Source: Malacoraja senta (taxonomy: Eukaryota). From it: a DNA stretch of 64,000 nt. Location: positions 558,001-622,000 of the forward strand of contig CM075989.1 in the NCBI GenBank assembly GCA_038087875.1, read 5' to 3'. The notes under the pieces are model-generated. The model was not told the DNA's origin, made no database searches, and saw nothing but the letters and a program-made list of their open reading frames with translations. Shown piece by piece: positions 12,579 to 63,822 of this stretch; the stretch's first letter is position 1; each line of letters starts with the position of its first letter. The position numbers and the translations under genes are program-made.

Positions 12579-14683
12579 CCTTGTACCCTAATGCAATATT
12601 CCACCATTCACCCGTTTCCCCAAAGCAACCCATTCCCCAATGCAATATTCCACCACACACTCATAGCCCCTATCTGCGCAGGCGCTGCTGATGGCTTCCC
12701 GTTGTGATGCCCCTGATCCCCCCTCTTCCCCTCAACCCCCCCCCCCCACTCTGCCTCTTCCCATTCCACACCCCTCGCACTCACTCCATCCCCCTTCAAC
12801 CTCGCCCCCCATCCATTCTTAGCAGCTCTCCGGCAGCGCAGCCGTTCCAGCCCATAGGGTTCCCATTGTGACGTAGAACACACAGGTAATACTGCGCAGG
12901 CGCAGCTGACGGGCACGGAAAGTGGAAAAGGGATTTATTAATGCATAAATTGTAAATAACTCTTAAAATATAAAAATGTTAACGTTAAAGATGAGATTTA
13001 TTTAGCCCATTCTTTCTTTTGCATCTCGTTGTGTTCTGTAACCGGGGGAGGGGGGGCTTCAGGCGGGGTATGTCGGTGGCCAGCAGGGGGAGCGTGCTGC
13101 AGCCGGGGAAGGGGCACGGCTTCAGACGGGGGCTGACGAGGGACGGTGGGGGGAGCGTGCTGCAGCCGGGGAGTGGGACGGCTTCGGGCGGGGCCTGTCA
13201 GGAGCCAGTGGGGAAGGGGGGGGTGACCGCTGCCATGGCCTTCTGCTGCCATGACCCCTGCAGTGTGGTGGGGTGGGTGTGTGGTGGGGGTTTATGGGGG
13301 GAGGGGGTCTGTGAGGTATGGGTGTGTGGGGGGAGGGGGAGTGTGTGGGGTGTGAAGGGTTAGTGCTGCAATGGCCTACTGCTGCCATGGCCTACCGCTG
13401 TTTGGCGGGGTAGGTGTATGGCAGATGGGGTGTGGGGGATATGTGGGATGGGAAGGGAAGGGTGTGTGTGCGCGGGAGGAGTGTGGTGGTGAGGGTGCGT
13501 GGGGGAGGGGATGGGGAGTGTGTTTGGGAGGGGAAGCGGTGTGTGTGCGAGGGGGGAGGAGGGTTTGTGGGAGTGGTTGTGTGGGCGGGGGGTATGGGAG
13601 GGGGTGGGTGAGGGAGGGGGAGGGGGGGGTGTGGGCGAGGTATGGGAGGGGGGAGTTTGTGGGCAGGGGGGTATGGAGGCCAGGGTTGTTTGTGGGGGTG
13701 TTGGCGGGTTGTGTGTTGGGTGAAGGGGAGGGGGAGCAGCGAGCGTTGGGGAGCCGGAGAGGGGGTGGTGTGGGCGGGGGAGGGTTCAGTGTGTGGGGTC
13801 TTTGTGGGGGAGGGGGATGTGTGGGCAGAGGGATGTTGTGGGGGGAGGGGTGTTTACACGGGGGGTGTGGGGATGTGGGTGCATGGGGGAAGGGAGGAGA
13901 GGGTGTGGGGCAGAGGGGGTTTGTGGGGGGTTGTGAGGGGTGTGTGGGCGGGCCAGCGGGGGGGGGGGTGGGTGGGGGGGGGGTGGACAGGGGGGGGGTT
14001 GTGGAGGCGAGGGGGCAGGGAGGGGGTGTGGGGGATTGGTGGGGTGTTGTCGGGGGGAGGGTTAGTGTGGGCTGGGGGGGAAAGAGCTTGGAGAGAAGAC
14101 AGGGTTTGTGGGGGAGAGGGGCTATCACAGGGGAGGGTGGCGTGAGCCTGCAAGAGGGACAAGAGGGGAAGGGGTTGGAGCGGACGGTGCGATTTGTACT
14201 TACAGGGGTCGCTGGTCGCTTTGCCGCTTTGTCGCTGGTCGCTTTGTCGCTGGTTGCTTTGTCACTTTGTCACTGGTCGTTCTCCTCCGCTGGGATCAGA
14301 TTCTCCACTTTCCGTTTGGCGACATTTCCCGTACCGGGCTGGGCCGTTTCCGGTCCCTCCGAAAATGGAAACCTCCACTGGCCCTCCTCAGCTCCAGTAA
14401 AGATGCGATGGCGCAGGGAGGAGCGGACCGTCCCGCGGAGTGACAGGAGAAAAGACCAATCCATGCGGCGCTGAACGGCAGGAGAGGAGATTGATCTGTG
14501 CACGCGTGATTAATTTTTTTTTTAACCTCGCTAACTTTTACATTAGACCTCCGATCGGAACAAAACGTGGTGCAATCGCAGCACAGGAGAATGGCGAGTA
14601 AGCTGACGGAAAATCGTAGTGCTATCGTGTACAATTTTTGCGCAAATAGAATGACCGCGCAACCGGATGATAACAAGATCAGA
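12579..14683 (-). mobile_element. Non-autonomous Helitron-like element with G-rich interior; both termini eroded
   Basis: 14430-14683 is homologous to the subterminal blocks at 36600-36845 and 58240-58454. 12580-12615 resembles 55215-55250, which lies next to a Helitron 3' hairpin. Confidence 0.6.
13260..14180 (+). repeat. G/T-rich low-complexity tract
   Basis: Runs of G separated by T/A. Confidence 0.9.
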
Positions 14684-14738
14684 GATAGAGAGATAGAGAG
14701 ATAGAGAGATAGAGAGATAGAGAGATAGATAGATTGAT
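14684..14738 (+). repeat. (ATAGAGAG)n microsatellite
   Basis: Direct reading. Confidence 0.95.
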
Positions 14739-24254: not shown

Positions 24255-25735
24255 TTCTTTCTTGAATGGGAAAAATAAAAAAAAATTAAAAACATTTAAA
24301 AAATATAAATGGGAACAATATTGTGTTCAAAAGAATATTCAATATGATACTGTAGTTATTGAAAATGTGTTAGAGTTTTATCTACACTTTATTATGTTGA
24401 GGGTCTTAGCTATAGTGCTATCAATACAGCTAGAAGTGCTTTGTCGACATATCTTGTAATAGGTATAACGGACACAAAGTATAGGTTCTCACCCTCTCAT
24501 ATCTAGGTTGATGAAAGGAATCTTTAATTACAAACCGCCTAAGCCTAGGTATATGGTAATCTACGATGTAAGCATTGTTCTTAACATGCTTCGTCATTGG
24601 ATCCCTGTCACGTCTATAACTTTGTTAAAATTAACCATGAAATTGGCTATGCTAATGGCATTGGTGTCAGTACAGAGAGTGCAGACTTTGCAAAAACTTC
24701 AGTTAGAAAGAATGGAAGTGACTACAGAGAATGTTCTGTTTTATATTTATGACCTGCTCAAACAAAGCAGGCCAGGTGTGACAGGATTTAAGATGGTGTT
24801 CTCAGCATATCCTACAGCTCCAAGTTTATGTGTAAGGACACATTTGTTACATTACATTGAAGCCACAAGGGCTTTAAGACAAGAAGAAACAGGATTATTT
24901 GTCAGTTACAAGAAGCCAACATAAAAGAGTGGCAGTTCAGACTATCTCAAGGTGGTTAAAGCAAGAGTTGGTTCAGGCAGGAATTAACATTTATGTGTTT
25001 ACATCTCATTCCACTAGCGCAGTAGCAACATCCGCGGCAAGGGCGATGGACGTTCCCATCGACCATATATTAAAAGCCGCAGGTTGGAAAAATGAACTTG
25101 TGTTTCAGCAATACTACCATCGGCCGATTGCCGATGGAGGGCTGTTTGCCAACTCAATATTGAGTGCTGTTGCTAGTGTTTAAAGTCTGTTTTCAATACT
25201 GTTTAATTCTGTTTCGTTTGTTGCCCCTACATTAAGAGGGTTTATTGGTTGTTTTATGACCAAAAATAAAACTGTTTTGGTTTTGCATGATATGCAATGT
25301 CATGTTTACAGCATTATTAATGATACTCAGAGTCAATCGATGCAGTGAGAAGCCGGGATTTTGATCTGCGGCATAAAAATCACAGAGCTTTAAAATCTTC
25401 ACGTAGTCACTCACGTGACTCTGAAGTAAAATAGTAAGATTAAACGAGAACTTACCAGTTTGAAGTTTGATCTTTATTTTATGACGAGTTAAGTTGGTGA
25501 TTACGTGCCCGCCACGCCCAACCCTCTCTCATAGAAAAAAGGTCATAATGGTAGTTCTCATGTTGATCATCTTAATATGTTACTTCAATTATGGTGTTGT
25601 CTGATTTCATACCGCTGCTTTGAAGATTGACGCGCATGCGCCCTGACGGGTCTTCTTCACGTAATCACCAACGTAACTCCTCATAAAATAAAGATCAAAC
25701 TTCAAACTGGTAAGTTCTCGTTTAATCTTACTATT
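24255..25735 (+). mobile_element. DIRS-type tyrosine-recombinase retrotransposon, 5'-truncated (YR pseudogene + ICR + right terminal repeat)
   Basis: GLSYSAINTARSALS, MKGIFN.KPPKPRY, QRVQTL, KQSRPG, TISRW, HSTS, AGW..F..YY are DIRS YR motifs, with frameshifts. A 78-bp inverted repeat lies at 25430-25507/25658-25735. Confidence 0.9.
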
Positions 25736-34699: not shown

Positions 34700-36845
34700 A
34701 TTCTTGAGGGAATGTGGTGATGTGGGGGAGGGAGTGTGTGTGGGGGAGGGGGGAGGGTCGGTGTGGTGGGGGTGTGTGTCTGGGGGAGGGGGTTGTGGGG
34801 GTGTGGGGAGATGGGGGGTGTAGGGGAATGGTGGGTGTGGGGGAGGGGGGTGTGGGGGAGGGGGGTTGTGGGGGTGTGTGGTGGATGGGAGGTGTGGGCC
34901 AGGGGGGGTTGGGGGAGAGGGATGTGGGGGAGGAGAGGTGTGGCAGAGGGGGATGTGGGGGGTTGTGGTGTGGGGGTGGGCTGGTGTGGGGGGGAGGGGG
35001 CGGTGTGGGGGGGATGGTGTGGGGGGAGAGAGTGGTGTTGGGGGAGGGGTGGTGTTGGGAGGAGGCGGTTGTTTGGGGGTTGGGAAAGGGTGTTGGAGTG
35101 GGCGGGGTGGTGTGGGGTGTGGTGGTGTGGGGGGGAGTGGGTGGTGTAGGGGAGGAGGTGGTGTGGGGTAGAGGGGGTTCGTGTGGGGGGAAGGTGGTGG
35201 TGTGAGGGGAATGGTGTGGGGGGGAGGGGGTAATGTGGGTGGAGGGGTGATCTAGTGGGGAGGAGGTGGTTTGGGGGGAGGAGGTGGTGTGGGAGGGAGG
35301 GGGTGGTCTGGAGTGGGTGGGGTGGTGTGAGGGGGGGGTTGCAGGGTGGAGGAATTGGGAGGTGTAAAGGGGGGTGTGGGTTTGTGGGGGGAGGGGTGTG
35401 TGGAGTGGAGGGGGAGGGGGGAGGGGGGAGGGGGGAGGGGGGAGGGGAAGAGGTGAAGGTTACAGGTGGTGTGTGTGGGAAGGAGGGGGAGGGGAGGGGG
35501 AAGGGGGGAGTGTGAGGGGGAGGTTGGGTGGGGGAGGGACTCCACTTAGCGGCCACCGGCCACAGCTCCACATAGCACCTACCGACTCCACATTGCTGCT
35601 TTCCCTGAAGAGGATGGTAGGAGGTTGCAGGGTGACCTGGATAGGTTGAGCGAGTGGGCAGATACATGGCAGATGCAGTATAATATAGATAAATGTGCGG
35701 TTATCCACTTTGGCGGCAAAAACAAGGGGGCAGATTATTATCTCAATAGGGTTAGTTTAGGTAAGGGGGAGGTGCAGCGAGACCTGGGTGTCCTTGTACA
35801 CCGGTCACTGAAAGTTGGCTTACAAGTACAGCAGGCAGTGAAGAAAGCTAATGGAATGCTGGCCTTCATAACAAGAGGATTTCAGTATAGGAGTAAAGAG
35901 GTTCTTCTGCAGTTGTATAGGGCTCTGGTGAGACCACATCTGGAGTATTGTGTACAGTTTTGGTCTCCTAATTTGAGGAAGGACATCCTTGTGATTGAGG
36001 CAGTGCAGCGTAGGTTCACGAGATTGATCCCTGGGATGGTGGGGCTGTCATATGAGGAAAGATAGGAAAGACTAGGCTTGTATTCACTGGAGTTTAGGAT
36101 GAGGGGGGATCTTACAGAATCATATAAAATTATAAAAGGACTGGACAAGCTAGATGCAGGAAAAATTTTCCCAATATTGGGCGAGTCAAGAACCAGGGGC
36201 CACAGTCTTAGAATAAAGGGGAGGTCATTTAAGACTGATGTGAGAAAAAACGTTTTCACCCAGAGAGTTGTGAATTTATGGAATTCCCTGCCACAGAGGG
36301 CAGTGGAGGCCAAATCACTGGATGGATTTAAGAGAGTTAGATAGAGCTCTAGGGGATAGTGGAGTCAAGGGATATGGGGAGAAGGCAGGCACGGGTTATT
36401 GATTGGGGACGATCAGCCATGATCATAATGAATGGCGGTGCTGGCTTGAAGGGCCGAATGGCTTCCTGCACCTATTTTCTATGTTTCTATGTTTCCCGCC
36501 TCCACACAGCGGCATTCCCGACTCCACTCTTGCGGACCCAAATAGCACGGCTTGTTTAGTCAGCCCTGCTTCAGTGACTTTAATCTTCAGCGGGTGCCAG
36601 AAGAGGCGTTACCTTCATTGTGACCGACAGGCGAGAAGACCAATCTGCTGATGTCACGATTTTTTAAACCTTCGTAACTTTTCTCATATTTCACCAATCA
36701 GAACAAACCTTGGTGTCTTGGACTAGAAGAGAACATTGAGTAAGGTGGCAAAAAATCCTAGTGATATAGCGTAGCGTTTTTGCACAAATTTAATGACAAT
36801 GCAGACCGGAAGTGCTCAAGATGAGAGTTTTAGTAATAGTATAGA
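34700..36845 (-). mobile_element. Non-autonomous Helitron-like element with G-rich interior, interrupted by a CR1
   Basis: Minus strand begins A|TCTATACTATTACTAAAAC at 36845. Subterminal block is shared with the other copies. 3' hairpin not found, so the left boundary is approximate. Confidence 0.65.
35606..36491 (+). mobile_element. 5'-truncated CR1 LINE
   Basis: ORF2 C-terminus, (TTTCTATG)n tail, TSD TTTCCC at 35600/36492. Confidence 0.92.
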
Positions 36846-37080: not shown

Positions 37081-38089
37081 GAGAGGCAGAGACAGGGTAG
37101 ACAGTCAGAACCTTTTTTTCCAGGATGGAAATGTCAAAGACAAAAGGGCATAATGTTAAGGTGAGAGAGGCAAAGTTTACCAGAGATGTGCTGGGAAATA
37201 ATTTTTAATGGTGGGGGGGCTGAAATGTGGTACCAGGGGTGGTGATAGTGTCAGATACAACAGTGGTGTTGAACGGCTTTAAATACATACATGGATATGC
37301 AGGAAATGGAGAGATATAGATCATGTACAGGCAGAGGAGATTACTTTAACTTAGCATCATCGTTGGCATAATGACAGGGCCAAAGGGCCTGTTTCTATGT
37401 TGTACTCTTCTATGCTTTATGTAGAAAAATCCATTTTGGTCTTTCTGAAATGGATTTACTTTGCAACTTAAAAGAAGTGTAAAGGCACAATAGATTTTCA
37501 TGTGGGGAGGATGTTTGTCTCAGAATAAGAAGTTTAATCTGGAATTAATATTTTTCATGCAGAGTAAGTTAAAGCTGTGGAAGGTCAGTTATGGAGTTCA
37601 TTTAAAACAGGATTAATATATTTCTGGGCATTCGCCTAAACAAGGGATATGGAGAGAGTGCAAGAACATGTGAATAAAGAATTTGCCACAACCTTGAAGA
37701 ATGGCAGAGCAAGCTCCAAGGGACAAATAGCCTTCTGTTATTTGTCGTAACACTTATGTTCATGTTTCTGAACAGCTTGTAATATTAATATTCTGTCCTC
37801 TACAGATGTTGCCTGACTTGCTGAATATTTCCTGCATTGTCAATTTTGATTCAGAATACCAGCATTTGCAACTTTTTGGCTTTTACTCAATGAAGCACGA
37901 TATTCCTGTTTTGCTTATTGTGTTGAGGGTACACAGGGTTTGAAGAATGTTCTTGGTGTTATAAAATAGCCTCTGGGATCATCTCTCAAATGACCTCCAG
38001 AATGGATTGTCTTAACACCATCTTTCCATTCACACATCAGACCTATTCTGAACTGAGCCTTGACTCAGTTTGTTTTCTGTTTCCCAACA

Positions 38090-39159: not shown

Positions 39160-40310
39160 ACAATGTTTAGGGCCGAGACCCTTCTTCGGTGGTTAGGGAT
39201 ATGGGAAACAAGAGATATAGACGGTGATGTAGAGAGATAAAGAACTTTGAATGAAAGATATGCAAAAAGGTAACGATGATAAAGGAAACAGGCCACTGTT
39301 AGTGGTTTTGTCGGGTGAAAATGAGAAGCTCGTGCGACTTGGGTGGGTGTGGGATAGAGAGAGAGGGAATGCCGGGGCTACTGGAAATGAGAGAAATGAA
39401 TAATCATACCACTAGGCTGTAAGTTGCCCAAGTGCAATATGAGATGCTGTTCCTCCAATTAGCGTTGAGCCTCACTCTGATAATGGAGGAGACCTAGGAC
39501 GTAAAGGTCTGTGTAGGAATGGGGAGGAGAATTAAAGTGTCCAACAACCGGAAGTTCAGGTTGGTTAAGGCGGGCTGAGCGAAGGTGTTACGCGAAACGT
39601 TTGCCCAGTCTGCATTTTGTCTCGCTGATGTATAAAAGTCCACATCTTGAACAATGGATACAGTAGATGAGGTTAGAGGAGGTGCAAATGAACCTCTGCC
39701 TAATCTGAAAGGACTGTTGGGGTCCATGGACGGAGTCGAGGGAGGAAGTATAGCGACAGGCGTTTCATCTTCTGCAGCTACAGAGGAAGGTACCTGGAGA
39801 GGGAGTGGTTTGGGTGGGAAGGGATGAGATAACCAGGGAGTTGTGGAGGGAACAGTTTCTGCAGAAGGCGGAAAGGGGTGGATATGGGAATATGTGGCTA
39901 GTGGTGGGATCCCGTTGCAGGTGGGGGAAATTTCAGAAGATTATGTGTTGTATGTGACAGCTGATGGGGTGGACATTAAGGACTTGGGGGGACTGTCTCT
40001 GGTGTGTCCAGGGAGAGGGGGAGCAAGGGTGGAACTGTGGGGTACTGACGAGACACAAGTGAGGGCCTCATCTATGATGGGAGCGGGGAAGCCCCATTCT
40101 CTAAAGAATGAGGACATCTCAGATGTCCTAGTATGGAACACCTCATCCTGGGCGCAGATGCGTCATAGACGGAGGAATAGTGAGTCAGGGATAGAGTCTT
40201 TGCAGGAAGCAGGGATGGAAGAAGTGTAGTCAAGATAGTTGTGGGAGTCAGTGGGTTTGTAATAAATGTCAGTCAATAGTCTATTTCCTGTGATGGTGAC
40301 TGTGAGATCA
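39160..40310 (-). mobile_element. Penelope-like element, 3' part (RT C-terminus, GIY-YIG region, pLTR)
   Basis: LDLTV..TDIYYKPTDSHNYLDYTSS.P.SCKDSIP, FHTRTSEMSSFF..GFP. Terminal motif reverse-complements to 'gaagaagggtctcggccctaaac'. Confidence 0.85.
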
Positions 40311-53437: not shown

Positions 53438-54061
53438 CAGCTTGTATGTGTTTATGTCCAACTGTCTGTAAATTCTCATGATGGGGAATAAACTCCATCA
53501 CTGCTACAACACTCTCTCCGTACCCCTGAGCTTCGCCCATTTGCTCCCTTCCCACCCACGTGCCTGTCCAAATGTCTTTTAAATGTTGTTATTGTACCGG
53601 CCTCAATCACTTCCTCAGCTCGTCATATATACCCTCCACCTTTGTGTGAAAAACCTGTCCCTCGGGTCCCCTTTAAATCTTCCCCATCTTACCTTAAACC
53701 TGTGGCCTTTAGTTTGAGACTCCCTACAATGGGAGGGTATCTAAAACCTGTCTCTGGTATGAACAACCTGCTTTCAGCTGGTGCTTGCTGTATCTGTCAC
53801 TGCACTCCACCCACCACTGTTCTCACAGGCTGCCAGAGAGACCTTGAGGTCTTCCCCTGGGTCAGTGCATGCGAGTTGCAGCAGCTGACCCTCAGTAAGA
53901 GAGTCAGTTCATGTGCAGTTCACGTTTTCAGAGGCAGAAAAGCACGAGAAGGTATTCACACACTTTGTCATCCCACAATGCCCAGGATGTGATTCCTACA
54001 CAATGGAGTCTGGAAGATCCACAAGCCCTCCAGTGCCTAATGTTGTTCCTTCTCTCCTCAG

Positions 54062-54427
54062 CTGCAGTGTCGAAGGAGTGGACAATCAACGCTCCATTAG
54101 ATGTGACAGCACAGAGGGGTCTGTGTGCCCGGATTCCGTGCCACCACAGTTACCCGTCGCGTCTGAATAAAATAACACCGGTTGGAATCTGGATTAACGA
54201 TGAGGACTGGAACTCTCAGTCTATCGCTTTCCACTCCGGGGATCGCAGTAGAGAATCACCAAGGTTTCACCATCGGACCCGGCTGTCTGCCGTCCTGAGA
54301 GACGGCAACTGTTCTCTGGTTATAGACAACATCACACAGGAAGATGAAGGTCCTTATCATTTTAGAACTGAATTTAACAGCAAAGATCGTTTCAGCTTCT
54401 TCCCTGTAACACGGCTGCATGTTTCTG
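54062..54427 (+). CDS. Siglec/MAG-like gene, N-terminal V-set Ig exon (sialic-acid-binding domain)
   Basis: Acceptor 'ttccttctctcctcag|', donor 'TCTG|gtaagt', phase 1-1. Translation EWT..GLCARIPC..W..RTRL..GNCSLVI..DEGPYHFRTE..RFSF shows the Siglec three-Cys pattern, no F-strand Cys, and the essential Arg in YxFR. Confidence 0.93.
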
Positions 54428-55479
54428 GTAAGTGTTCTGTATAATCAGTCAACAACTGATATTCAGGCAGTAGGAAGTAACACAAACTGCGCTTCTGCCC
54501 AATGAACACAAACGATAGCTCAGTATCACAGTGTTTGATGGTTAAACACTGGCATTGCCCTCCAGTCCAATTTCACCACAATGCTGATAATTCTTCCATT
54601 ATCATCAGTAAAACATGAGCACTATATGCAGGTATGTTACCAGCTGTGATACGTGTTGCTAATCACACATTGCTCCAGTAATGTACACAGCAAAGTGGGA
54701 CTCAAGCTTGTAATCTACTTTGCAATAGCTCAGGTGTTACAATATACTTTATATACAATCAAGAGTCATCTCTGGTGAAAGAGGAAATTTCAGGCTGTGA
54801 TGTTGGAATTTTCATCAGCAAGTGTGAGATGTTGAACTTTGCAAAGTCGAATGCAAGGGGAATTTAATGGCAAGATCCGTAACAGCATTGAAAATGCAAA
54901 GGTTTCTTGGAGTCCAAGCCCATAACTCTGAAGGTGGCAACACAAGTAGATAGTGTGGTAAAGAAGGCTTTTGGTACGCTTGCCTTCATTCATAGGAGCA
55001 TTGAGTATAAGAGTCAGGAAGACATGATGAAGCTTTTGGGGGGAATTTGAATTTCTTTCTCTGGCACATTGGATATTGAGAGGATACCTGATAGAAGTAT
55101 ATGAAATTATAATAGACATAGAAAGGATAGACAATTAGAATATTTTTGCTCGGAAGGAAATATCAAATACTGGACTAAGTGGGACCTGTTGGGTCCCATG
55201 TTCACACGGGAGGGCTGGTCCCCCAACGCAATATTCCACCTCTCCACCAATTCCAATATTGGTGGCCAGTGGGGTGGGGGGGGGGGGGGTGGGCTTTCTG
55301 GACCGCTAGTATGGGTATTGTGGGCTGAAGGGACTGGTTTCCAGAGGGCTAGTATGGACATTGTGGGCCAAATGGATTCTTGGGGTGGCACCTCAGTCAC
55401 TCAAGCATGATGTGCTGGCAGCTCACTCATGACTGGTGGGCTAGCAGTTGACTCATGGCTATTCTTTGAAATTCCTTTT

Positions 55480-55826
55480 CAAGCAGGATGCAAGGCCACC
55501 AAATTCAAGTGCAGTTTCCGACCACTTCAAGCAGGATGCCAGGCCACCAAATTCAAGTGCAGTTTTATGCCACTTCAAGCAGGGTGCAAGGCCACCAAAT
55601 TCAAGTGCAGTTTCATGCCATTTCAAGGAGGGTGCGAGGCCACCAAATGCTAGTGCTGTTTCATGCCATTTCAAGCACGGTGCAAGGCCACCAAATTCAA
55701 GTGCATTTTCACACCATTTCATGCAGGGTGCAAGGCCACCAAATTCAAATGCTGTTTCATACCATTTCATGCAGGGTGCAAGGCCACCACATTCAAATGT
55801 AGTTTCATACCATTTCAAGCAGGGTG
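55480..55826 (+). repeat. 48-bp minisatellite, 7 copies + partial
   Basis: Unit caagcagggtgcaaggccaccaaattcaagtgcagtttcatgccattt. Confidence 0.95.
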
Positions 55827-56244
55827 AAACCACCATAAAACCACACAAAACACCACATAAACACCACATTCGCAGTTCAGTAGACATTCAGTGTGTTCAG
55901 TTGATTCACAGCTCAGACAGTCGTGACCTCTCCCTCCCCCATCTTGCAGAAACTGAGCCACACCCACACGTCCGGGTTTTATAATCCCTCCCCCTCCCAC
56001 TGGAAGGGGCGTGGCCTTCATGGGATGATTGACAGGAGAGAGATTCTCAACATTTTTTTAAACACTAATAACACTTTTACTTTTCATTGATGGAAAGAAT
56101 CCTCTGCACCTGATGAGCAGAGTGGGACTGAGTAAGGTGGCCAAAAATCACAGCCGTAAGTAGTAGCATTTGATCTAGAATCAATATACAGTGCAAACAG
56201 GAAGTTGTCAAGTTTACACCGACAACCATTTGCAGTGCAGCATT

Positions 56245-57910
56245 TATTTTTATTTTATAATTTTTTTATTAGAAGTAAGTACAATAATGTGGCACCAAGG
56301 TGCCTAATATATATTGACATGTTACATTTTATGTACAGCTTCATATTTTTTTCTTTAACAATAAAAGAGAGAAAGAAAAAATAGGTAATAAAGAAATAGA
56401 AAAACATGTGATGTCTAGGTGTGTGAAAAGAAAGAGGGGGGAAAGAGGGGAAGAAAAAGAAAAAAAGAAGAAAAAAAAGAGGGAGAGAAAGAGAAGTAGT
56501 AGAGAGTAAGATATTGTAGGAGATAGTTATTTATATTCTTGACCATCCTTCACCCAGTCCTGAAACAGTTGGTTTCTACGATTTTGTTGCACCATATGCT
56601 TCCAAGAAGTCGATAAATGGAGACCAACTCGTTAAGAATTGGTCTGTTTTATCTGTTAGGAGGAATCGCATTTCTTCAAGATGTGCGGTTTGCAACATGT
56701 TTGAAATCCACATTTTAAGCATTGGTATGGGTGTATTTTTCCAAAATTTAAGTATAAGTTTTTTCGCCGTTATTAACACATAATTAAAAAATGAATTTTG
56801 AAATGTGTTCAGTTTGTTCCCGTCTTCCGTTACTCCAAGTATAATCATTTCAGTGTTAGGCTCCATTTTTATCTTGAATAATTTTGTAAATATTTCAAAG
56901 ATATCGCTCCAGAATTTATGAAGTTTTATGCAGGAAACAAAAGAGTGTGTTATAGTGGCATTTTGAGATAAACATTTATCACAAATGGGAGAAGTATTTG
57001 GATAAAATTTATTCAGTCTAATTTTTGAACAATATAATCTATGTAGAATTTTGACTTGAATTAAGTTATGTCTTACATTAATCGAACATTTGTGTATATA
57101 TATCAAATGCTTTACCCATGTTTCTTTTGTGATTTTTATCATTAATTCTCGTTCCCAATCTTCTCTAAGTACCTCTGTCGATGGTAGTTCTATGTTTAAA
57201 ATACTATTATATAAATATGATATTAATTTCTGTGAGTCAGCCTTAATATTCATTGCTTCTTCCAGTGGATCTAAAGTTAAAGTTTGATATCTTTGTATAT
57301 ATTTCTTCATGAAGTCGCAGATCTGAAGGTATTTAAAATATTGGTTATTTTTCAGTTTAAATTTTAATTGTAATTGTTGGAATGATAACAGATTTTCCCT
57401 TTCATACATATCGCTGATCCTTTTAATTCCAATTCTTTCCCATTGGTTATATGTTTTATCGGTGAGAGATGGTTTAAATGAAGGATTATTCACTATTGGC
57501 GTTAACAGTGATAGGTTTCTTAATTCTCCATTCGTATCCATTCTGTCTGTTGGGTAGGACTGTCCAACCAATAAATTATATTTTTAATATGCACTGCCCA
57601 GTAATAATACAAAAAGTTCGGATGTGAAAGTCCCCCAGCGTCTTTGGGTTTACACAGATGTTTTCTTTGAATTCTATGTGATCTATAGTCCCAAATAAAG
57701 TTAGTAATGTTAGAGTCTAGTTTTTTGAAGTTTTTTTATATATAATGGTATAGATTGGAATAGGTATAATATTTGTGGTAAAAAGATCATTTTTATAGCG
57801 TTTATTCTGCCTATTAATGACAACGGAAGTTTTTTCCAGAATTTAATCAACACGTTCAATTTATTTAATAAGGGTGTAAAATTAGCATTAAATAATTATT
57901 TGGATTTTCT
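56245..57910 (-). mobile_element. 5'-truncated L1-type LINE
   Basis: ORF2 C-terminus paralogous to the other L1s, poly-T end, candidate TSD AGCATT (56239/57911). Splits the 41-bp array. Confidence 0.92.
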
Positions 57911-57917
57911 AGCATTG

Positions 57918-58091
57918 CAAAGCAACCCCCACCAACAACCATTTGCCGTGCAGCATTTCAAAGCAACCCCCACCAACAACCATTTGCCGTGCAGCATTTC
58001 AAAGCAACTCCCACCGACAACCATTTGCCGTGCTGCATTTCAAAGCAACCCCCACCGACAACCATTTGCAGTGCAGCATTTCAAAGCAACC
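57918..58091 (+). repeat. 41-bp minisatellite, 4 copies + partial (another partial at 56218-56245)
   Basis: Unit caaagcaacccccaccaacaaccatttgccgtgcagcattt starts at 57918, 57959, 58000, 58041. Confidence 0.95.
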
Positions 58092-58499
58092 AGATTTTCA
58101 TTTTCAAACCACATTAAGTGCACTCACAGTTGAGTAGGCATGTGTTCAGTGTTATTCACAGCTCAGAGAGACGTGACCCTCTCGCTTCCTCCATCTTGCA
58201 GAGACTGAGTGAGGCACAACACTTCCGGGTTTTATAGTCCCTCCCCCCTCGCACCAGCAGAGAGAATCTTAACATTTTAAAACATTAATAACTCTTTTAT
58301 TTTTCATCAATGGGAAAATTCCTCTTGTCCTGCCCAGCGGAGGGGGACTGAGTAAGATGGCTAAAAATCACAGCCGTAAGTGACAGCGTTTTTTCTAAAA
58401 TCCCGAAACAGAAAAAACAGGAAGTGGTCAAGATCTTACTTTTAGTAATATAGACTAGAGGGCATAGTTTAAAGTAACAGGGGCAAAGCTTAACGGAGA

Positions 58500-60195
58500 C
58501 TAGACCAAGGGGGAACCGTTGGGTCCCATCCCCTCAACATGCGGTTGCGGAGGGGCGGGCATGTGGCGTCAGACACACACTAACCACCGCACCCACACAC
58601 ACTAACCACCCCACACACACACACACTAACCATCCCCCTTGATATTATATTATAGAGGGGGGGGATGGAGAGGGGGGAGGGGTGGGATGGAGGGGCGGGA
58701 CAGATGGGCGGGACGGAGGGGGGAGGAAAGGGGGAGAGGAGAGGGGGGAGTGGGTTGAGGAGAAGGGGATGAGAGGGGGAGGAGGGGGAGAGGGGGGAGG
58801 TGAGGGGGAGGAGTGGCGGGAGGTGAGGGGGAGGAGTGGCGGTGGGGGGAGAGAGAGGGGAAGGGGGAGAGGGAGGGGGAGGGATGTGGAGAGGGGGGTG
58901 GGGAGGGGTGTGGAGAGCGGGTGAGGGGGGAGAAAGGGGAGATGGATGGGGGGGAGGGGGGTAGAGGGTGGAGAGAGAGGGGGAGAGGGCGGTGATGGGG
59001 AGGGTGCAAGGGGGGAGGGGGAGAGAGAGGGGTGGGGGGAGAGAGAGGGTTGGGAGGAGGGGGAGGGGGTGAGGGGGGTAACGGGGAGAGAGGGGGAGGG
59101 GGAAGGGGGAGGTGGAAGGGGAAGGGGGACGGGGGCTGGGGAGGGAGGTGGAAAGGGGGGTGCAGAGAATGGTGGAGGAGGGGAGGAGGGGAGGTGGGGA
59201 GGAGGGGAGAGGAGGGAGAGAAGAGGTGGTGGGGGATGGAGGGGAAGGGGAGGAGAGGAGGAAGGGTGGGGGATGGGGAGGGTGGAGGGTGGGGGAGGGG
59301 GGGAGGAGTGAGAGAGGGAGAGGGGGAGAGAGAGGGGGAGAGGGGGGCAGAGGGGGAGAAAGGGGGAGAGGAAGGGTGGAGCGAATTGGAGAGGGGGAGA
59401 GGGTGGGAGGGGGAGGGGGGAGTGGGAGAGAGGAGGGGGGGTTGAGGGGGAGGGGGAGAGATGGTGGAGGGGAGAGGGGGAGTCGGGGAGAGAGAGGGGG
59501 GGAGAGGAGAGGGAGAGGGGGAGAGGGGGAGAGGGGGAGAGGACGGGGAGAGGAGGGGGGAGAGGGGAGATTGAGGTAGTGGAGGGGGAGAGGAGGGGTG
59601 GGGGAGAGAGAGGGAGAAGGCGTACTTCAACTCGGCGAGCGGACAGCGGGCCTCGGTAGCGCTCGGGACATCGCGAGACCTCGGAAACCCAACCAAATTA
59701 CTGCGTTTCAGCGGCTTCAATCCATAGCCCTGGGGGGGGGAGATCAGCTGGGCTGCAGGCGGTTCGGGGTGTACGGCCGTCCGAGTGCGAGTCAACTGCG
59801 AGGTTCGGCGAACAAATGACTGCGAGTCGAGGGGAGGGGGGTGCAGTTGGTGGAGACATAACTCGCAGCGCGTGGAAAAAATGCCCAGCAGGCTGCCTGT
59901 TGAAAACACTGCGCAGCGGGCCGCGAGGGGCAAAGCCATTGTGACATCATCAGAACGTTAGCTTTAAAACATATTTCATTTTTGTGAACAATTTTAATAA
60001 ATAACTCAAGAAATAATGAATCAAATTTTCAGTTGAGGCGATTTTTGAGATCACGAGGTAAATCTCTATCTGAATATGTAAACATTTCACCGTTAACGCG
60101 TTGTGTTTTCGAGGAAATGTGAATCACAGACAAACAAGACACACACACACAACTAAATACATCGACATCCAAGATCAGTTTTATAATTATAGAGA
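58500..60195 (-). mobile_element. Complete non-autonomous Helitron with ~970-bp G/A-rich interior
   Basis: Minus strand reads A|TCTCTATAATTATAAAAC...GGGACCC-AAC-GGTTCCC-CCTTGGT-CTAG|T. The host CR1 rejoins as 'aacggagA|Tgtgcagggcaag' with no TSD. Confidence 0.88.
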
Positions 60196-60378
60196 TGTGC
60201 AGGGCAAGTTTTTCTACACAGAGGGTGGTGAGCAACTGAAACACGCTATCAAGGGTGGTGGTGGAGGAAGATACGATTGTGGCAGTTAAAAGACTTTTGG
60301 ATAGGCACATGGTTATGCAGGGAACGGAGGGATGTGGATTATATGCAGGCGGATCAAGTTAGTCTCACCAGCATGTTG

Positions 60379-60514
60379 TTAAAGAAGGAACTGCAGATGC
60401 TGGAAAATCGAAGGTACACAAAAATGCTGGAGAAACTCAGCGGGTGCAGCAGCATCTATGGAGCTCCATAGATGCTGCTGCACCCGCTGAGTTTCTCCAG
60501 CATTTTTGTGTACC
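60379..60514. mobile_element. Penelope pLTR-derived fold-back insertion (perfect 102-bp palindrome 60413-60514)
   Basis: Exact inverted arms around GAGCTC; 18-bp TSD agtctcaccagcatgttg at 60361/60515. Confidence 0.88.
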
Positions 60515-61729
60515 AGTCTCACCAGCATGTTGGCAGAGACATTGTGCACCAAGGGGCCTGGTGCTGTCCTGCATTGTTCTATGTTCTATGTATTCCCCAC
60601 TGCCAACACCCGCAGCATAATATGTAGTGAGGGGCATGGATAAAGTGAGTGTTCACAGTCTTTGCCGAAGTGTAGACAATGCTCAAACTAGAAGGCTTCA
60701 GTTTAAGGTGAGAGGGGAGAGATTTAAAAAGGACCTCAGGGGAAACTTTTGCACCCAGACATTATTCCACATCTGGTATGAGATGCCAGAGGAACAAAAG
60801 GAAGTGGATACGATTACACCTTTAAAAGACATTTGGACATAAACATGGATAGGAAGCATATGGAGGTATAGGGGCCAAGCGTAGCCAAATGACATTAGCG
60901 TGGAATACCATTATTACCAGCATGGACACGGTGGGCTGAAGGGCCTGCTTTCATACTGTGTAGCTTCACGACTACACAATCTGCTCAATTTGCACCTTAT
61001 CCTCCACCCAAAATCCTCCCTCCCTCTCTGCCCAAATACATTGAAAAAGGAGCCGTCTACAGCATTTCTCTTTGGTTGCTGCTACTGATACATATTCTTT
61101 TTTTATTTTTGCTGCAGATGTGTAATGTAATGTTGGGCGTATTCACTAACAGAATGACTCAAAACTGTGATCCACTTCTCTGCTTGAAGCCAGCTCTGAA
61201 ATGTACTTCTTTTTAAAGAGTTGGTATCTCCCAAATTAGCTCTGTGTAGGGTTCCTGTTCCACACAAGGCTGGATAAATGATTCAGCAACAATTATTTCT
61301 AACTCAGGGTCAACAAGACCAAGGAACTAATTGTTGAATTCAGAAAGGGGAAGTTGGGAAACCAGGTGTCGGTTTTTATTGGTGGAGAGGATCAGCAGCT
61401 TCAAATTCCTGGATGACCTGTCGTGGGTGTGCAGCACATTGATCCAATTGTGGAGAAGGCAAACCAGTACCTCTACTTCCTGAGTTTAGGGAGAGTTGGT
61501 ACACTACGTCTCCGAAAACTCCATCAAACTTCCACAGATGCACTGAAGAAAGTATCCTGATTGGTTGCATCATGGCATCATGGAGAATGGCAATTCCAAT
61601 ATCCTGCCTCCAGATGGCAGCATCTATCATCAAGGATCCCCATCATGTGGGCCATGCTCTCTTCTCACTGCTACCGACAGGTCGGAGCTACAGAATCCTG
61701 TAGTCCCACACCACAGGTCAGCAACAGCT

Positions 61730-62016
61730 ATGATTTGAGAATTAAGGGACAGAAGTTTAGGGGAAACATGAGGGGGAACTTCTTTACTCAGAGAGTAGTA
61801 GCTGTGTGGAATGAGCTTCCAGTGGAAGTGGTGGAGGCAGGTTCGATTTTATCATTTAAAAATGAATTGGATAGGTATATGGACGGGAAAGGAATGGAGG
61901 GTTATGGTCTGAGTGCAGGTAGATGGGACCAGGGGAGAATAAGTGTTCGGCACGGACTAGAAGGGCCGAGATGGCCTGTTTCCGTGCTGTAATTGTTATA
62001 TGGTTATATGGTTATA
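61730..62016 (+). mobile_element. CR1 3' fragment nested in an older LINE remnant (~61290-61729)
   Basis: LRIKG..FFTQRVV.VWNELP; (ATATGGTT)n tail. Confidence 0.85.
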
Positions 62017-62647
62017 TGTTACTACTATGGACACATTCTTGAACCGACCTTCACAACTCTAATACTATTTCAGCAGTGGAACACTACAGACCACCTTGTA
62101 CTGGCATGGACTTGATTTCTTCTATTCTAATTATGTTTTTGCACTAATTGTCTGTTTTTATTGCAATCTTTCTTTTATAATCTTTTGTGTAATTTATGCA
62201 AAATGTGTTTTTTGTGTGTTTCTCCATGTGCCTGTGATCCTGCTGATTTTCACTACTCCTATACCTCACCCTCGGTGTGTATATGACAATAGACTTGAAC
62301 TCCTTCCACCTCTTCCCATGTCCCTCATCACCACTTCAGATGCCCCTCTCTCCTCAGTATCTATCTGGTTCCTCACAAATCCATCTCTGTTATTCACCAC
62401 AAACCCTTCTAGTGGGAATGAGGTGGCATTTCCTCCACTGGATAGAGGAATTTCTCATGAATTCCCCACTGGATTTATCAGGTCTGTCACAACTGGAGAA
62501 CCAGAGACCTCTCCACCATTACAGTGCTCCCTCAAGCCGAGAGGCCCAGTGCAAGGGCACGTTAACAACATCTAAACTGCCAGCTGTGCTGTTCCCTCAC
62601 AGGGCAACGTCTGGTGACATTTAACTGAAAGCTTCTCTGTTTATTAG

Positions 62648-62941
62648 ATTTCACAGATAAACCCTCAATATTCCCTGTTGAAACGGTGGAAGGAAAGACT
62701 GTGAACGTAACCTGCACCTTCAACACCACATGTGATGGAACAGCTCCCAACTTAACCTGGGTCACCCCCACTGATGAACCACTGTCAGTCTCACACAGTG
62801 TAACTCAGTGGGGTGACAGTCTGACATATACTTCTGTTGTGTCCCTGACCCCAGCGCTCCAACATCACGGGCAAAACATAACCTGCAGATTCAGATACTT
62901 AACTGTTTCATCGGAGCAGACCCTCACACTGACTGTGCAAT
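62648..62941 (+). CDS. Siglec/MAG-like gene, first C2-set Ig exon
   Basis: Acceptor 'ttctctgtttattag|', donor 'CAAT|gtaagt', phase 1-1. DFTDKPSI..VTCTFNTTC..PNLTW..TSVVSLTP..HHGQNITC..LTVQ includes the extra Cys typical of Siglec domain 2. Confidence 0.93.
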
Positions 62942-63099: not shown

Positions 63100-63380
63100 A
63101 CTCCCACTGCACTGCCCCTCCTACTGGGCGACGCTCCCTCAATACTGCCCCTCCCCAGGGTTGATGCTCCCTCAGTATTGCCCCTTACAAAGTGTGGAGC
63201 TCCCACTGTACTGGCCCTCCCAATGTGGTGCTCTCTCAGTACCGCCCCTCCCACAGTGCGGCACTCCCTCAGTACTGCCCACCAGCCAGCACAGCTCTCT
63301 CTCACTAGTGACCCTCCCACAGTGTGGCACACCCTCAACACTGCCCCATTAACAGTACGGAGCTCCCTCAGCACTGCCCC
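63100..63380 (+). repeat. Degenerate ~33-bp minisatellite (cactccctcagtactgcccctcccacagtgcgg)
   Basis: Tandem copies in the intron between the C2 exons. Confidence 0.85.
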
Positions 63381-63540
63381 ATAATATGCTGCATTTTGCC
63401 CTTTCTATCATATAGCAATTTCCTCAGAAGCCTGATCTGTAACAGAAACAAACTTGCACGAATATCTGACGTTTTCCACCAGTGATCTCTAAAGATGCCC
63501 CACAACTGGTGCCCAGGCACTGATCTGTATTTGCTTTTAG

Positions 63541-63822
63541 ATTCCCCACAGAATCTCTCAATCAATTCTTCCGACAAGGTGAACAATTCCTGGGTCAGTA
63601 TAAAGGAAGGGAACTCTACAGCGATCCTCTGCTCTGTCCAGAGTTTCCCAGCGTCTAACCTGACATGGAGACATCTTGGTGTTACACTGAACAGAACAAG
63701 TTCCAACAACGAGCTGTGGTTGGAGTTCCCTCAAGTGACACCGCGCCTCACTGGGGTCTATCAGTGTGTGGCGGAGAATAAACATGGGGCAGCGGAAAGG
63801 ACCGTGACTCTCGCCATAGAAC
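63541..63822 (+). CDS. Siglec/MAG-like gene, second C2-type Ig exon (gene continues past window end)
   Basis: Acceptor 'atttgcttttag|', donor 'GAAC|gtgagt', phase 1-1. Translation YSPQNLS..EGNSTAILCSVQSFPASNLTW..GVYQCVAENKHG. Confidence 0.92.

Follow-up and report, generated by a model that had tools for sequence, protein, structure and literature searches.

The far end of this stretch of skate DNA, which is 64 kb long and is here called the window, holds a long G/A-rich tract on the plus strand that ORF finders read as Pro-rich frames. The question raised by this locus is whether the tract belongs to a transposable element and, if so, how the element came to hold it. The initial annotation described a complete non-autonomous Helitron placed between an A and a T without target duplication, and this description stands: it is supported by both termini, by the rejoining of the CR1 that the element interrupts and by the contigs of public read runs. 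We regard the interval, called element A in Table 1, as a non-autonomous canonical Helitron (Helitron1/HLE1) of the skate genome that was moved in trans, with a probability of about 0.92. The case is built on the termini, the CR1 and the reads taken together, since the hairpin with its CTAG is by itself at chance level.

Table 1. Positions of the features discussed in the text (coordinates of the window)
Feature	Position	Strand	Description
Element A	58500..60195	-	Assigned to Helitron1/HLE1, non-autonomous; 1696 bp, both ends intact, without coding capacity
5' terminus of element A (LTS)	60170..60195	-	TC start, AT-rich; TAAAA..ATCTTG signature in common with elements B and D
5' body of element A	59620..60169	-	AT-rich arm, then CpG-rich segment
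Low-complexity core of element A	58655..59619	-	C/T-rich on the element strand, G/A-rich on the plus strand
3' module of element A (RTS)	58500..58654	-	155 bp; short CA-rich repeat, hairpin, 7-nt spacer, CTAG
Left piece of interrupted CR1 3' end	58455..58499	+	45 bp; final letter A
Right piece of interrupted CR1 3' end	60196..60355	+	First letter T
Element B	57911..58454	-	Helitron-like, from a very abundant family; 5' TC at 58454; final 41-bp tandem array interrupted by an L1-type LINE
Element C	55170..56215	-	Copy of the B family; 48-bp minisatellite; hairpin-type 3' end like that of A (CCAG, then T)
Element D	36845-34700	-	Older, Helitron-like; 5' end near 36845; C-rich core; CR1 insertion
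Element E	14700-12590	-	Older, Helitron-like; 5' end near 14700; C-rich core
Intron of Siglec/CD33-like gene	54428..62647	+	8.2 kb, GT-AG; from V-set exon to first C2-set exon
Three Ig exons of Siglec/CD33-like gene	54046-54427, 62648-62941, about 63543-63821	+	Open frames

Termini, target site and dispersed copies of element A

Li et al. (2024, PMC11417382) define HLE1 elements by a 5' TC, a 3' hairpin followed by CTRR, insertion between A and T and the absence of a target-site duplication (TSD); HLE2 elements, by their definition, have short inverted repeats and a T|T insertion site. On the minus strand, the first two letters of element A are TC (60195-60194), with an A ahead of them at 60196, and its last four are CTAG (58503-58500), followed by T at 58499. 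The insertion site at this locus is A|T, and the minus-strand TC start and CTAG end between an A and a T are as the initial annotation gave them; a start 2 nt further inward is formally possible, 60193 likewise being the first letter of a TC. The TAAAA..ATCTTG patterns used for the 5' signature were drawn from these same ends, which makes the chance figures for them post hoc, and one of the four matches to the signature, at 39633, was rejected because it is not an element end. Inward from the terminus, the AT-rich arm (59945-60195) has a GC content of 0.31, and the CpG-rich segment (59620-59944) has a GC content of 0.62 and a CpG o/e of 1.02 versus 0.41 for the window. As to a RepHel-encoding element, a search for which was also raised at the outset, a scan of the six frames of the 64-kb window with regular expressions for Rep and Walker A words gave no such motif. 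No Rfam family matched within the window.

When the two flanks (58455-58499 and 60196-60360) are rejoined, they match, with no gap over the junction, a CR1 3' end that lies uninterrupted at 37145-37335 (69.5% over 200 columns, E 1e-15). The junction was spanned by one of the four outside matches, the remaining three being limited to the right flank. The rejoined CR1 holds a single GAGA, as the uninterrupted copy does. This ungapped and duplication-free alignment bears out the claim of an exact A/T placement in an old CR1 that rejoins without a target duplication. On the plus strand GAGA stands at the end of both the left flank and element A, which amounts to microhomology at both junctions, and because this GAGA is shared by flank and element, a target duplication of 2 or 4 bp is a formal possibility at this one locus. 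The lack of a TSD is indicated by the rejoined CR1 and by the other loci, which have no GAGA in the 3' flank; the A before TC and the lack of a duplication at element A's own 5' end are observations on this locus only.

On the other side of the left CR1 piece, the TC start of element B directly adjoins a CTAG of CR1 (58454-58458), an arrangement that resembles two Helitrons joined head to tail. It is exactly at this end of element B that the CR1 piece starts, and a few letters fit both CR1 and B. A 5'-truncated CR1 joined to the end of element B is one explanation for this arrangement.

The 3' module contains a hairpin at 58527-58511 (stem 58527-58521 / 58517-58511, 3-nt loop) that lies 7 nt ahead of CTAG. 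As regards the 7-bp GC hairpin reported before, its position and its 7-nt spacer hold and its pairing needs correction: a mismatch at 58515 leaves 6 of 7 pairs in this copy, and the folding is no better than that of shuffled sequence (z = -0.69 and +0.30). The majority letters in the contigs of four public runs, which make up 87-97% of the depth at 58515 and 69-87% at 58510, give a perfect 8-bp stem of -8.6 kcal/mol versus -5.1 for this copy. A subterminal hairpin of the HLE1 kind is thus present, with 6/7 pairs here and perfect with the majority read letters. As a chance control, GC-rich stems with at least 6/7 pairs were counted upstream of CTRR sites; they were found at 3 of the 1821 sites in the window and at 0-3 sites in the same scan of 5 shuffled windows, which is why the hairpin and CTAG of this copy carry no weight on their own. 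The hairpin of element C has a 7-bp stem with z -2.58. Judging from the hairpin-deletion results in PMC4778049, the stem mismatch at 58515 would favor read-through upon renewed mobilization.

Of the public runs, 24 of which are listed, four (X15, X16, X1, and X2) had their contigs aligned to the sequence, over 58095-58650 only, a stretch that comprises the 3' end of element A and the 5' end of element B, without the tract and without the 5' end of A. One contig of X15 spans 58432-58545 with 0 differences. This indicates that the junction is real DNA and exists outside this assembly, although X15 may be the assembly's own sample. In all four runs the depth jumps 24- to 52-fold from the bin 58475-58493 to the bin 58513-58531, a jump that serves as a boundary and not as a copy number. 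Among the 32 listed pieces, 4 come from other loci at the 3' end and begin at 58499, 58499, 58499, and 58498; all 4 keep T after CTAG and drop GAGA. The pieces listed are a selected subset that favors long ones, with 55,426 further pieces beyond it. No loose end at 58499/58500 was found among the 24 rows listed, beyond which there are 1421 more.

The 3' module recurs in many contigs of all four runs, which is what dispersed copies with conserved ends look like. Across copies, the A|T context is represented by the T after CTAG in the 4/4 listed pieces and by the A before TC of the family B consensus only. Across the 101 positions of 58500-58600, this copy and the X15 majority disagree at 11 or more, a figure that mixes subfamilies and is not an age. 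No empty-allele contig was found among the rows listed, and as the contigs show presence only, they give no evidence of fixation. Exact-pattern scans found the 3' motif of element A in 0 metagenome, 0 viral, and 0 prokaryote contigs, the family B motif in 0 metagenomes, and the 5' motif of element A in 0 viral contigs. The single prokaryote match to the 5' motif of A (L001) was discarded as chance, as it consists of 25 AT-rich nucleotides only, without a TC start or further similarity.

Neighboring Helitron-like elements and competing views of the insertion

Element B, which starts 45 bp from element A and was absent from the initial annotation, belongs to a far more abundant family. Loose ends exactly behind 58454 were observed in all four runs (149, 136, 193, and 235 contigs). 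The flanks beyond 58454 are unrelated and AT-rich, with an agreement of 0.36-0.37, and their consensus first letter is T on the plus strand, that is, A before TC; at this locus it is G, not A, that stands ahead of the TC of element B. Element C aligns with B at 71.6% over 366 columns, element D also aligns with B, and the 5' bodies of D and E align at 68.6% over 191 columns. What element A has in common with the others is only the 5' signature of ~25 nt, found in B and D, and the last 30 nt, found in C. Its 5' body is not alignable to the bodies of B to E (local scores of 20-24, shuffled maxima of 25-38), and the body and tract showed no alignment with any other element in the window, the scores being at shuffle level.

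The B/C family has copy-specific minisatellites of 41 and 48 bp and contains TATA-, ETS-, and YY1-like words; promoter-like words of this kind, which are vertebrate motifs taken without a chance control and given no weight here, occur in elements A, B, and C. The L1-type LINE inside the 41-bp array of element B (57910-56246, minus strand) is 5'-truncated with an A-rich tail, and 29 bp of the 41-bp repeat unit recur beyond that tail. Elements D and E are each preceded by an ATCT/CT microsatellite, and the 3' end of element E passes into LINE sequence, with no terminus seen.

The single HLE1 insertion has to be weighed against a composite origin, in which a terminator-less 5' module with the tract was read through into a separate mini-Helitron of ~157 bp, which would begin with its own TC at 58656 (minus strand) and supply the hairpin and CTAG. 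We consider this improbable. An internal TCTATAAT at 58656-58649 (minus strand), on the border between the tract and the 3' module, does repeat the 5' letters of element A; the final 30 nt are common to the unrelated bodies of A and C, a contig of X15 runs from the 3' module (58626) into B-type sequence (58179), and left ends of Helitron-like elements are more diverse than right ends (PMC11417382). However, TCTATAAT occurs 6 times in the window versus a shuffled mean of 2.5, with 5 of 100 shuffles reaching 6, and the site at 58656 fails the longer 5' pattern and is preceded by C, not A. Far less credible still is a cut-and-paste or retro-type insertion that duplicated GA or GAGA, with TC and CTAG being coincidental. 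It finds some footing in the GAGA present at both junctions on the plus strand and in the chance-level hairpin of this copy taken alone, but no terminal inverted repeat was found among the 25 longest of 71 inverted pairs, neither end has a poly(A) or tandem tail, and the other loci keep 1-2 flanking letters and not GAGA (4/4 listed). Moreover, the majority hairpin is perfect, and the 5' signature is common to element B, whose boundary is TC. An HLE2/Helentron (HINE/DINE-1) identity of element A was rejected as well, given that the insertion is A|T, not T|T, and that no inverted repeats pairing both ends occur among these same 25 longest of 71 pairs.

As a single HLE1 insertion, element A would owe its copying to a RepHel supplied in trans by an autonomous element whose termini are the same. 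By analogy with the Helraiser experiments (PMC4778049), RepHel would nick at the 5' TC, the element strand would be copied out via a circular intermediate, with the 3' hairpin ending the process at CTAG, and the copy would be joined between A and T with no duplication. The order of events at the locus was presumably that the CR1 3' end came first and element A landed later, with the tract probably already inside.

Composition and origin of the G-rich tract

On the plus strand the core of element A (58655-59619) is 965 bp long, 92% purine, and 69% G, and it contains 103 runs of three or more G and 19 matches to a G4 pattern. Repeated 18-mers number 23, versus a mean of 2.5 and a maximum of 9 in shuffled sequence, and local duplications are seen at 23- and 8-nt spacing; most of the periods given by Tandem Repeats Finder have 61-69% matches. 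The Pro-rich ORFs arise because none of the three minus-strand frames of the core has a stop. The three long ORFs of element A matched no Pfam family and no real protein, and a protein search with the non-repetitive (CpG-rich) frame gave 0 of 643 candidates. The protein match P0055 to a frame of element A was dismissed as a repetitive Cys-rich artifact. The stop-free frames, together with the lack of Pfam or real protein matches, are in line with the earlier view that the Pro-rich ORFs of the G/A tract are spurious.

Only three G-rich tracts are present in the 64-kb window, at 13121-14140, 34701-35560, and 58641-59640. All three lie within Helitron-like elements (E, D, and A, respectively), downstream of the 5' body, and are C-rich on the element strand; the tract at 34701-35560 was assigned to element D by eye across the inserted CR1. 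The tracts of D and E are alike above the level of shuffles (score of 249 versus a maximum of 223 in 40 shuffles), and the tract of element A compares with those of D and E no better than shuffles do (265 versus a maximum of 275 and 149 versus a maximum of 159).

We lean slightly toward the view that the tract is a low-complexity core internal to the element, of a kind that families of skate Helitrons grow and carry, extended by slippage and local duplication. A recurrent low-complexity core is favored by the finding that the G-rich tracts, 3 of 3, sit inside Helitron-like elements and share one polarity; our estimate for a family-borne, self-expanding core draws on this polarity, on the likeness of the D and E tracts, and on the exact repeats inside the tract of A. 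The initial annotation took the G/A tract for Helitron cargo, which fits its position inside the termini and goes too far as a claim of capture from the host, for which no donor locus was found. We judge it rather unlikely that this Helitron acquired its polypurine tract from the host, whether through 3' read-through or through filler capture. The tract does sit within the termini, read-through capture by Helraiser is experimentally established (PMC4778049), the shuffle-level likeness of the A tract to those of D and E makes a separate origin possible, and the neighboring CpG-rich segment, with its CpG o/e of 1.02, could be a captured promoter-like piece. Against capture stand, besides the missing donor locus, the absence of any G-rich tract outside Helitron-like elements in the 64 kb (0 of 3), the identical polarity of all three tracts relative to their elements, and the lack of a protein match for the CpG-rich frame. 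Growth of the tract after insertion at this locus is about as unlikely as capture, and a distortion of the assembly is highly unlikely.

If the core is indeed family-borne, several distinct skate Helitron families may carry a strand-polarized, kilobase-long G/C-rich core, always placed after the 5' body and ahead of the 3' terminator, which we suggest tentatively. In the same tentative sense, this core may be C-rich on the transferred strand and prone to form G-quadruplexes on the template strand. Such polarity could come from slippage on a G-rich template during rolling-circle copying, and the slippage might be tolerated because RepHel has a Pif1-type helicase. Pif1 helicases unwind G4 DNA. 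Were this true, most long G-rich tracts of low complexity in skate genomes, and most spurious Pro/Gly-rich gene models there, would stem from these Helitrons. Should the pattern of this window (3/3 tracts inside Helitron-like elements, with one polarity) hold genome-wide, it would link rolling-circle transposition with the way G4-prone DNA has spread in a vertebrate lineage, a modest new point.

Relation to known Helitrons and to the host gene

Helitrons in skates are already known and abundant (PMC11417382). According to the supplement of that paper, HLE1 elements occur in 4 of 8 cartilaginous fishes: Leucoraja erinacea (11,154), Mobula birostris (4,818), Hypanus sabinus (1,651), and Carcharodon carcharias (1). 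Among the HLE1 proteins named in its Supplementary Tables S1 and S10 (HELIANO) are Helitron-1_AmRa and Helitron-2_AmRa, both of Amblyraja radiata, and Helitron-1_CM, of Callorhinchus milii. The two AmRa Helitrons belong to the same host group and the same class, HLE1, as element A; the rows of these tables give named proteins and counts, not DNA, non-autonomous families, or G-rich cores. A skate HLE1 element is the likely source of the RepHel that moved element A. That the family of element A is unannotated, as was suggested, is doubtful, since skate HLE1 elements are named and counted in this source and each of the four runs holds the 3' terminus in heavy repetition. As a single insertion, element A matters little, because Helitrons are known and numerous in skates. 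Its value is for annotation: masking for low complexity or ORF finding would overlook the element and report Pro-rich ORFs in its place.

Non-autonomous HLE1 elements (PMC11417382) have in common with element A the 5' TC, the 3' hairpin and CTRR, the A|T insertion, and the lack of a TSD and of a transposase. Element A departs from the HLE1 norm in the one-base break of its stem and in its 965-bp low-complexity core and is otherwise of the same kind. With Helraiser/Helibat1 (Grabundzija et al. 2016, PMC4778049) it has in common the TC and CTAG ends, a subterminal hairpin terminator, an AT target, and an AT-rich left end. Helraiser is an autonomous element of 5,296 bp that encodes RepHel and has a 19-bp palindrome 11 nt from its end, whereas element A has a hairpin of 17-19 nt that lies 6-7 nt ahead of CTAG and encodes nothing.

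Non-autonomous Helitrons filled with repeats have been reported from frogs, zebrafish, flies, bivalves, and bats (PMC12001565). Heli2Xen/Helitron-N2_XT, Helitron-N1_DR, and DINE/HINE, all treated there, resemble element A in having mostly repetitive filler between conserved ends. The neighboring elements B and C, with their 41- and 48-bp minisatellites, resemble the minisatellite-filled Helitrons of that source; the filler of element A is a degenerate G/A low-complexity tract, in contrast with the regular minisatellites reported there. Moreover, DINE/HINE elements are of the HLE2 type, whereas element A is of the HLE1 type. A literature search, with Repbase Reports and most subscription journals outside its coverage, returned no paper on skate non-autonomous Helitrons or on G-rich Helitron cores, and PMC6817897, PMC10468316, and PMC9659126 added nothing specific.

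Elements A, B, and C lie antisense within the intron of a Siglec/CD33-like gene (54428-62647), and effects of element A on this gene are possible. A scan for bacterial promoters and terminators was at chance level and has no bearing here. Elsewhere in the window, an ORF fragment at 24469-24924 (plus strand), which by eye we take to resemble a tyrosine-recombinase (DIRS-type) retroelement protein, had no Pfam match. The spliced exons of the Siglec-like gene align without gaps to a protein named Siglec-13 of Leucoraja erinacea (P0009) with 84.4% identity over 211 amino acids, and the proteins nearest to this host gene are skate proteins, which points to a skate as the host. Its close relatives belong to a family that is expanded in skates and rays. 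The intron that follows in this gene contains a degenerate tandem repeat of 32-33 bp at 63111-63400 (plus strand).
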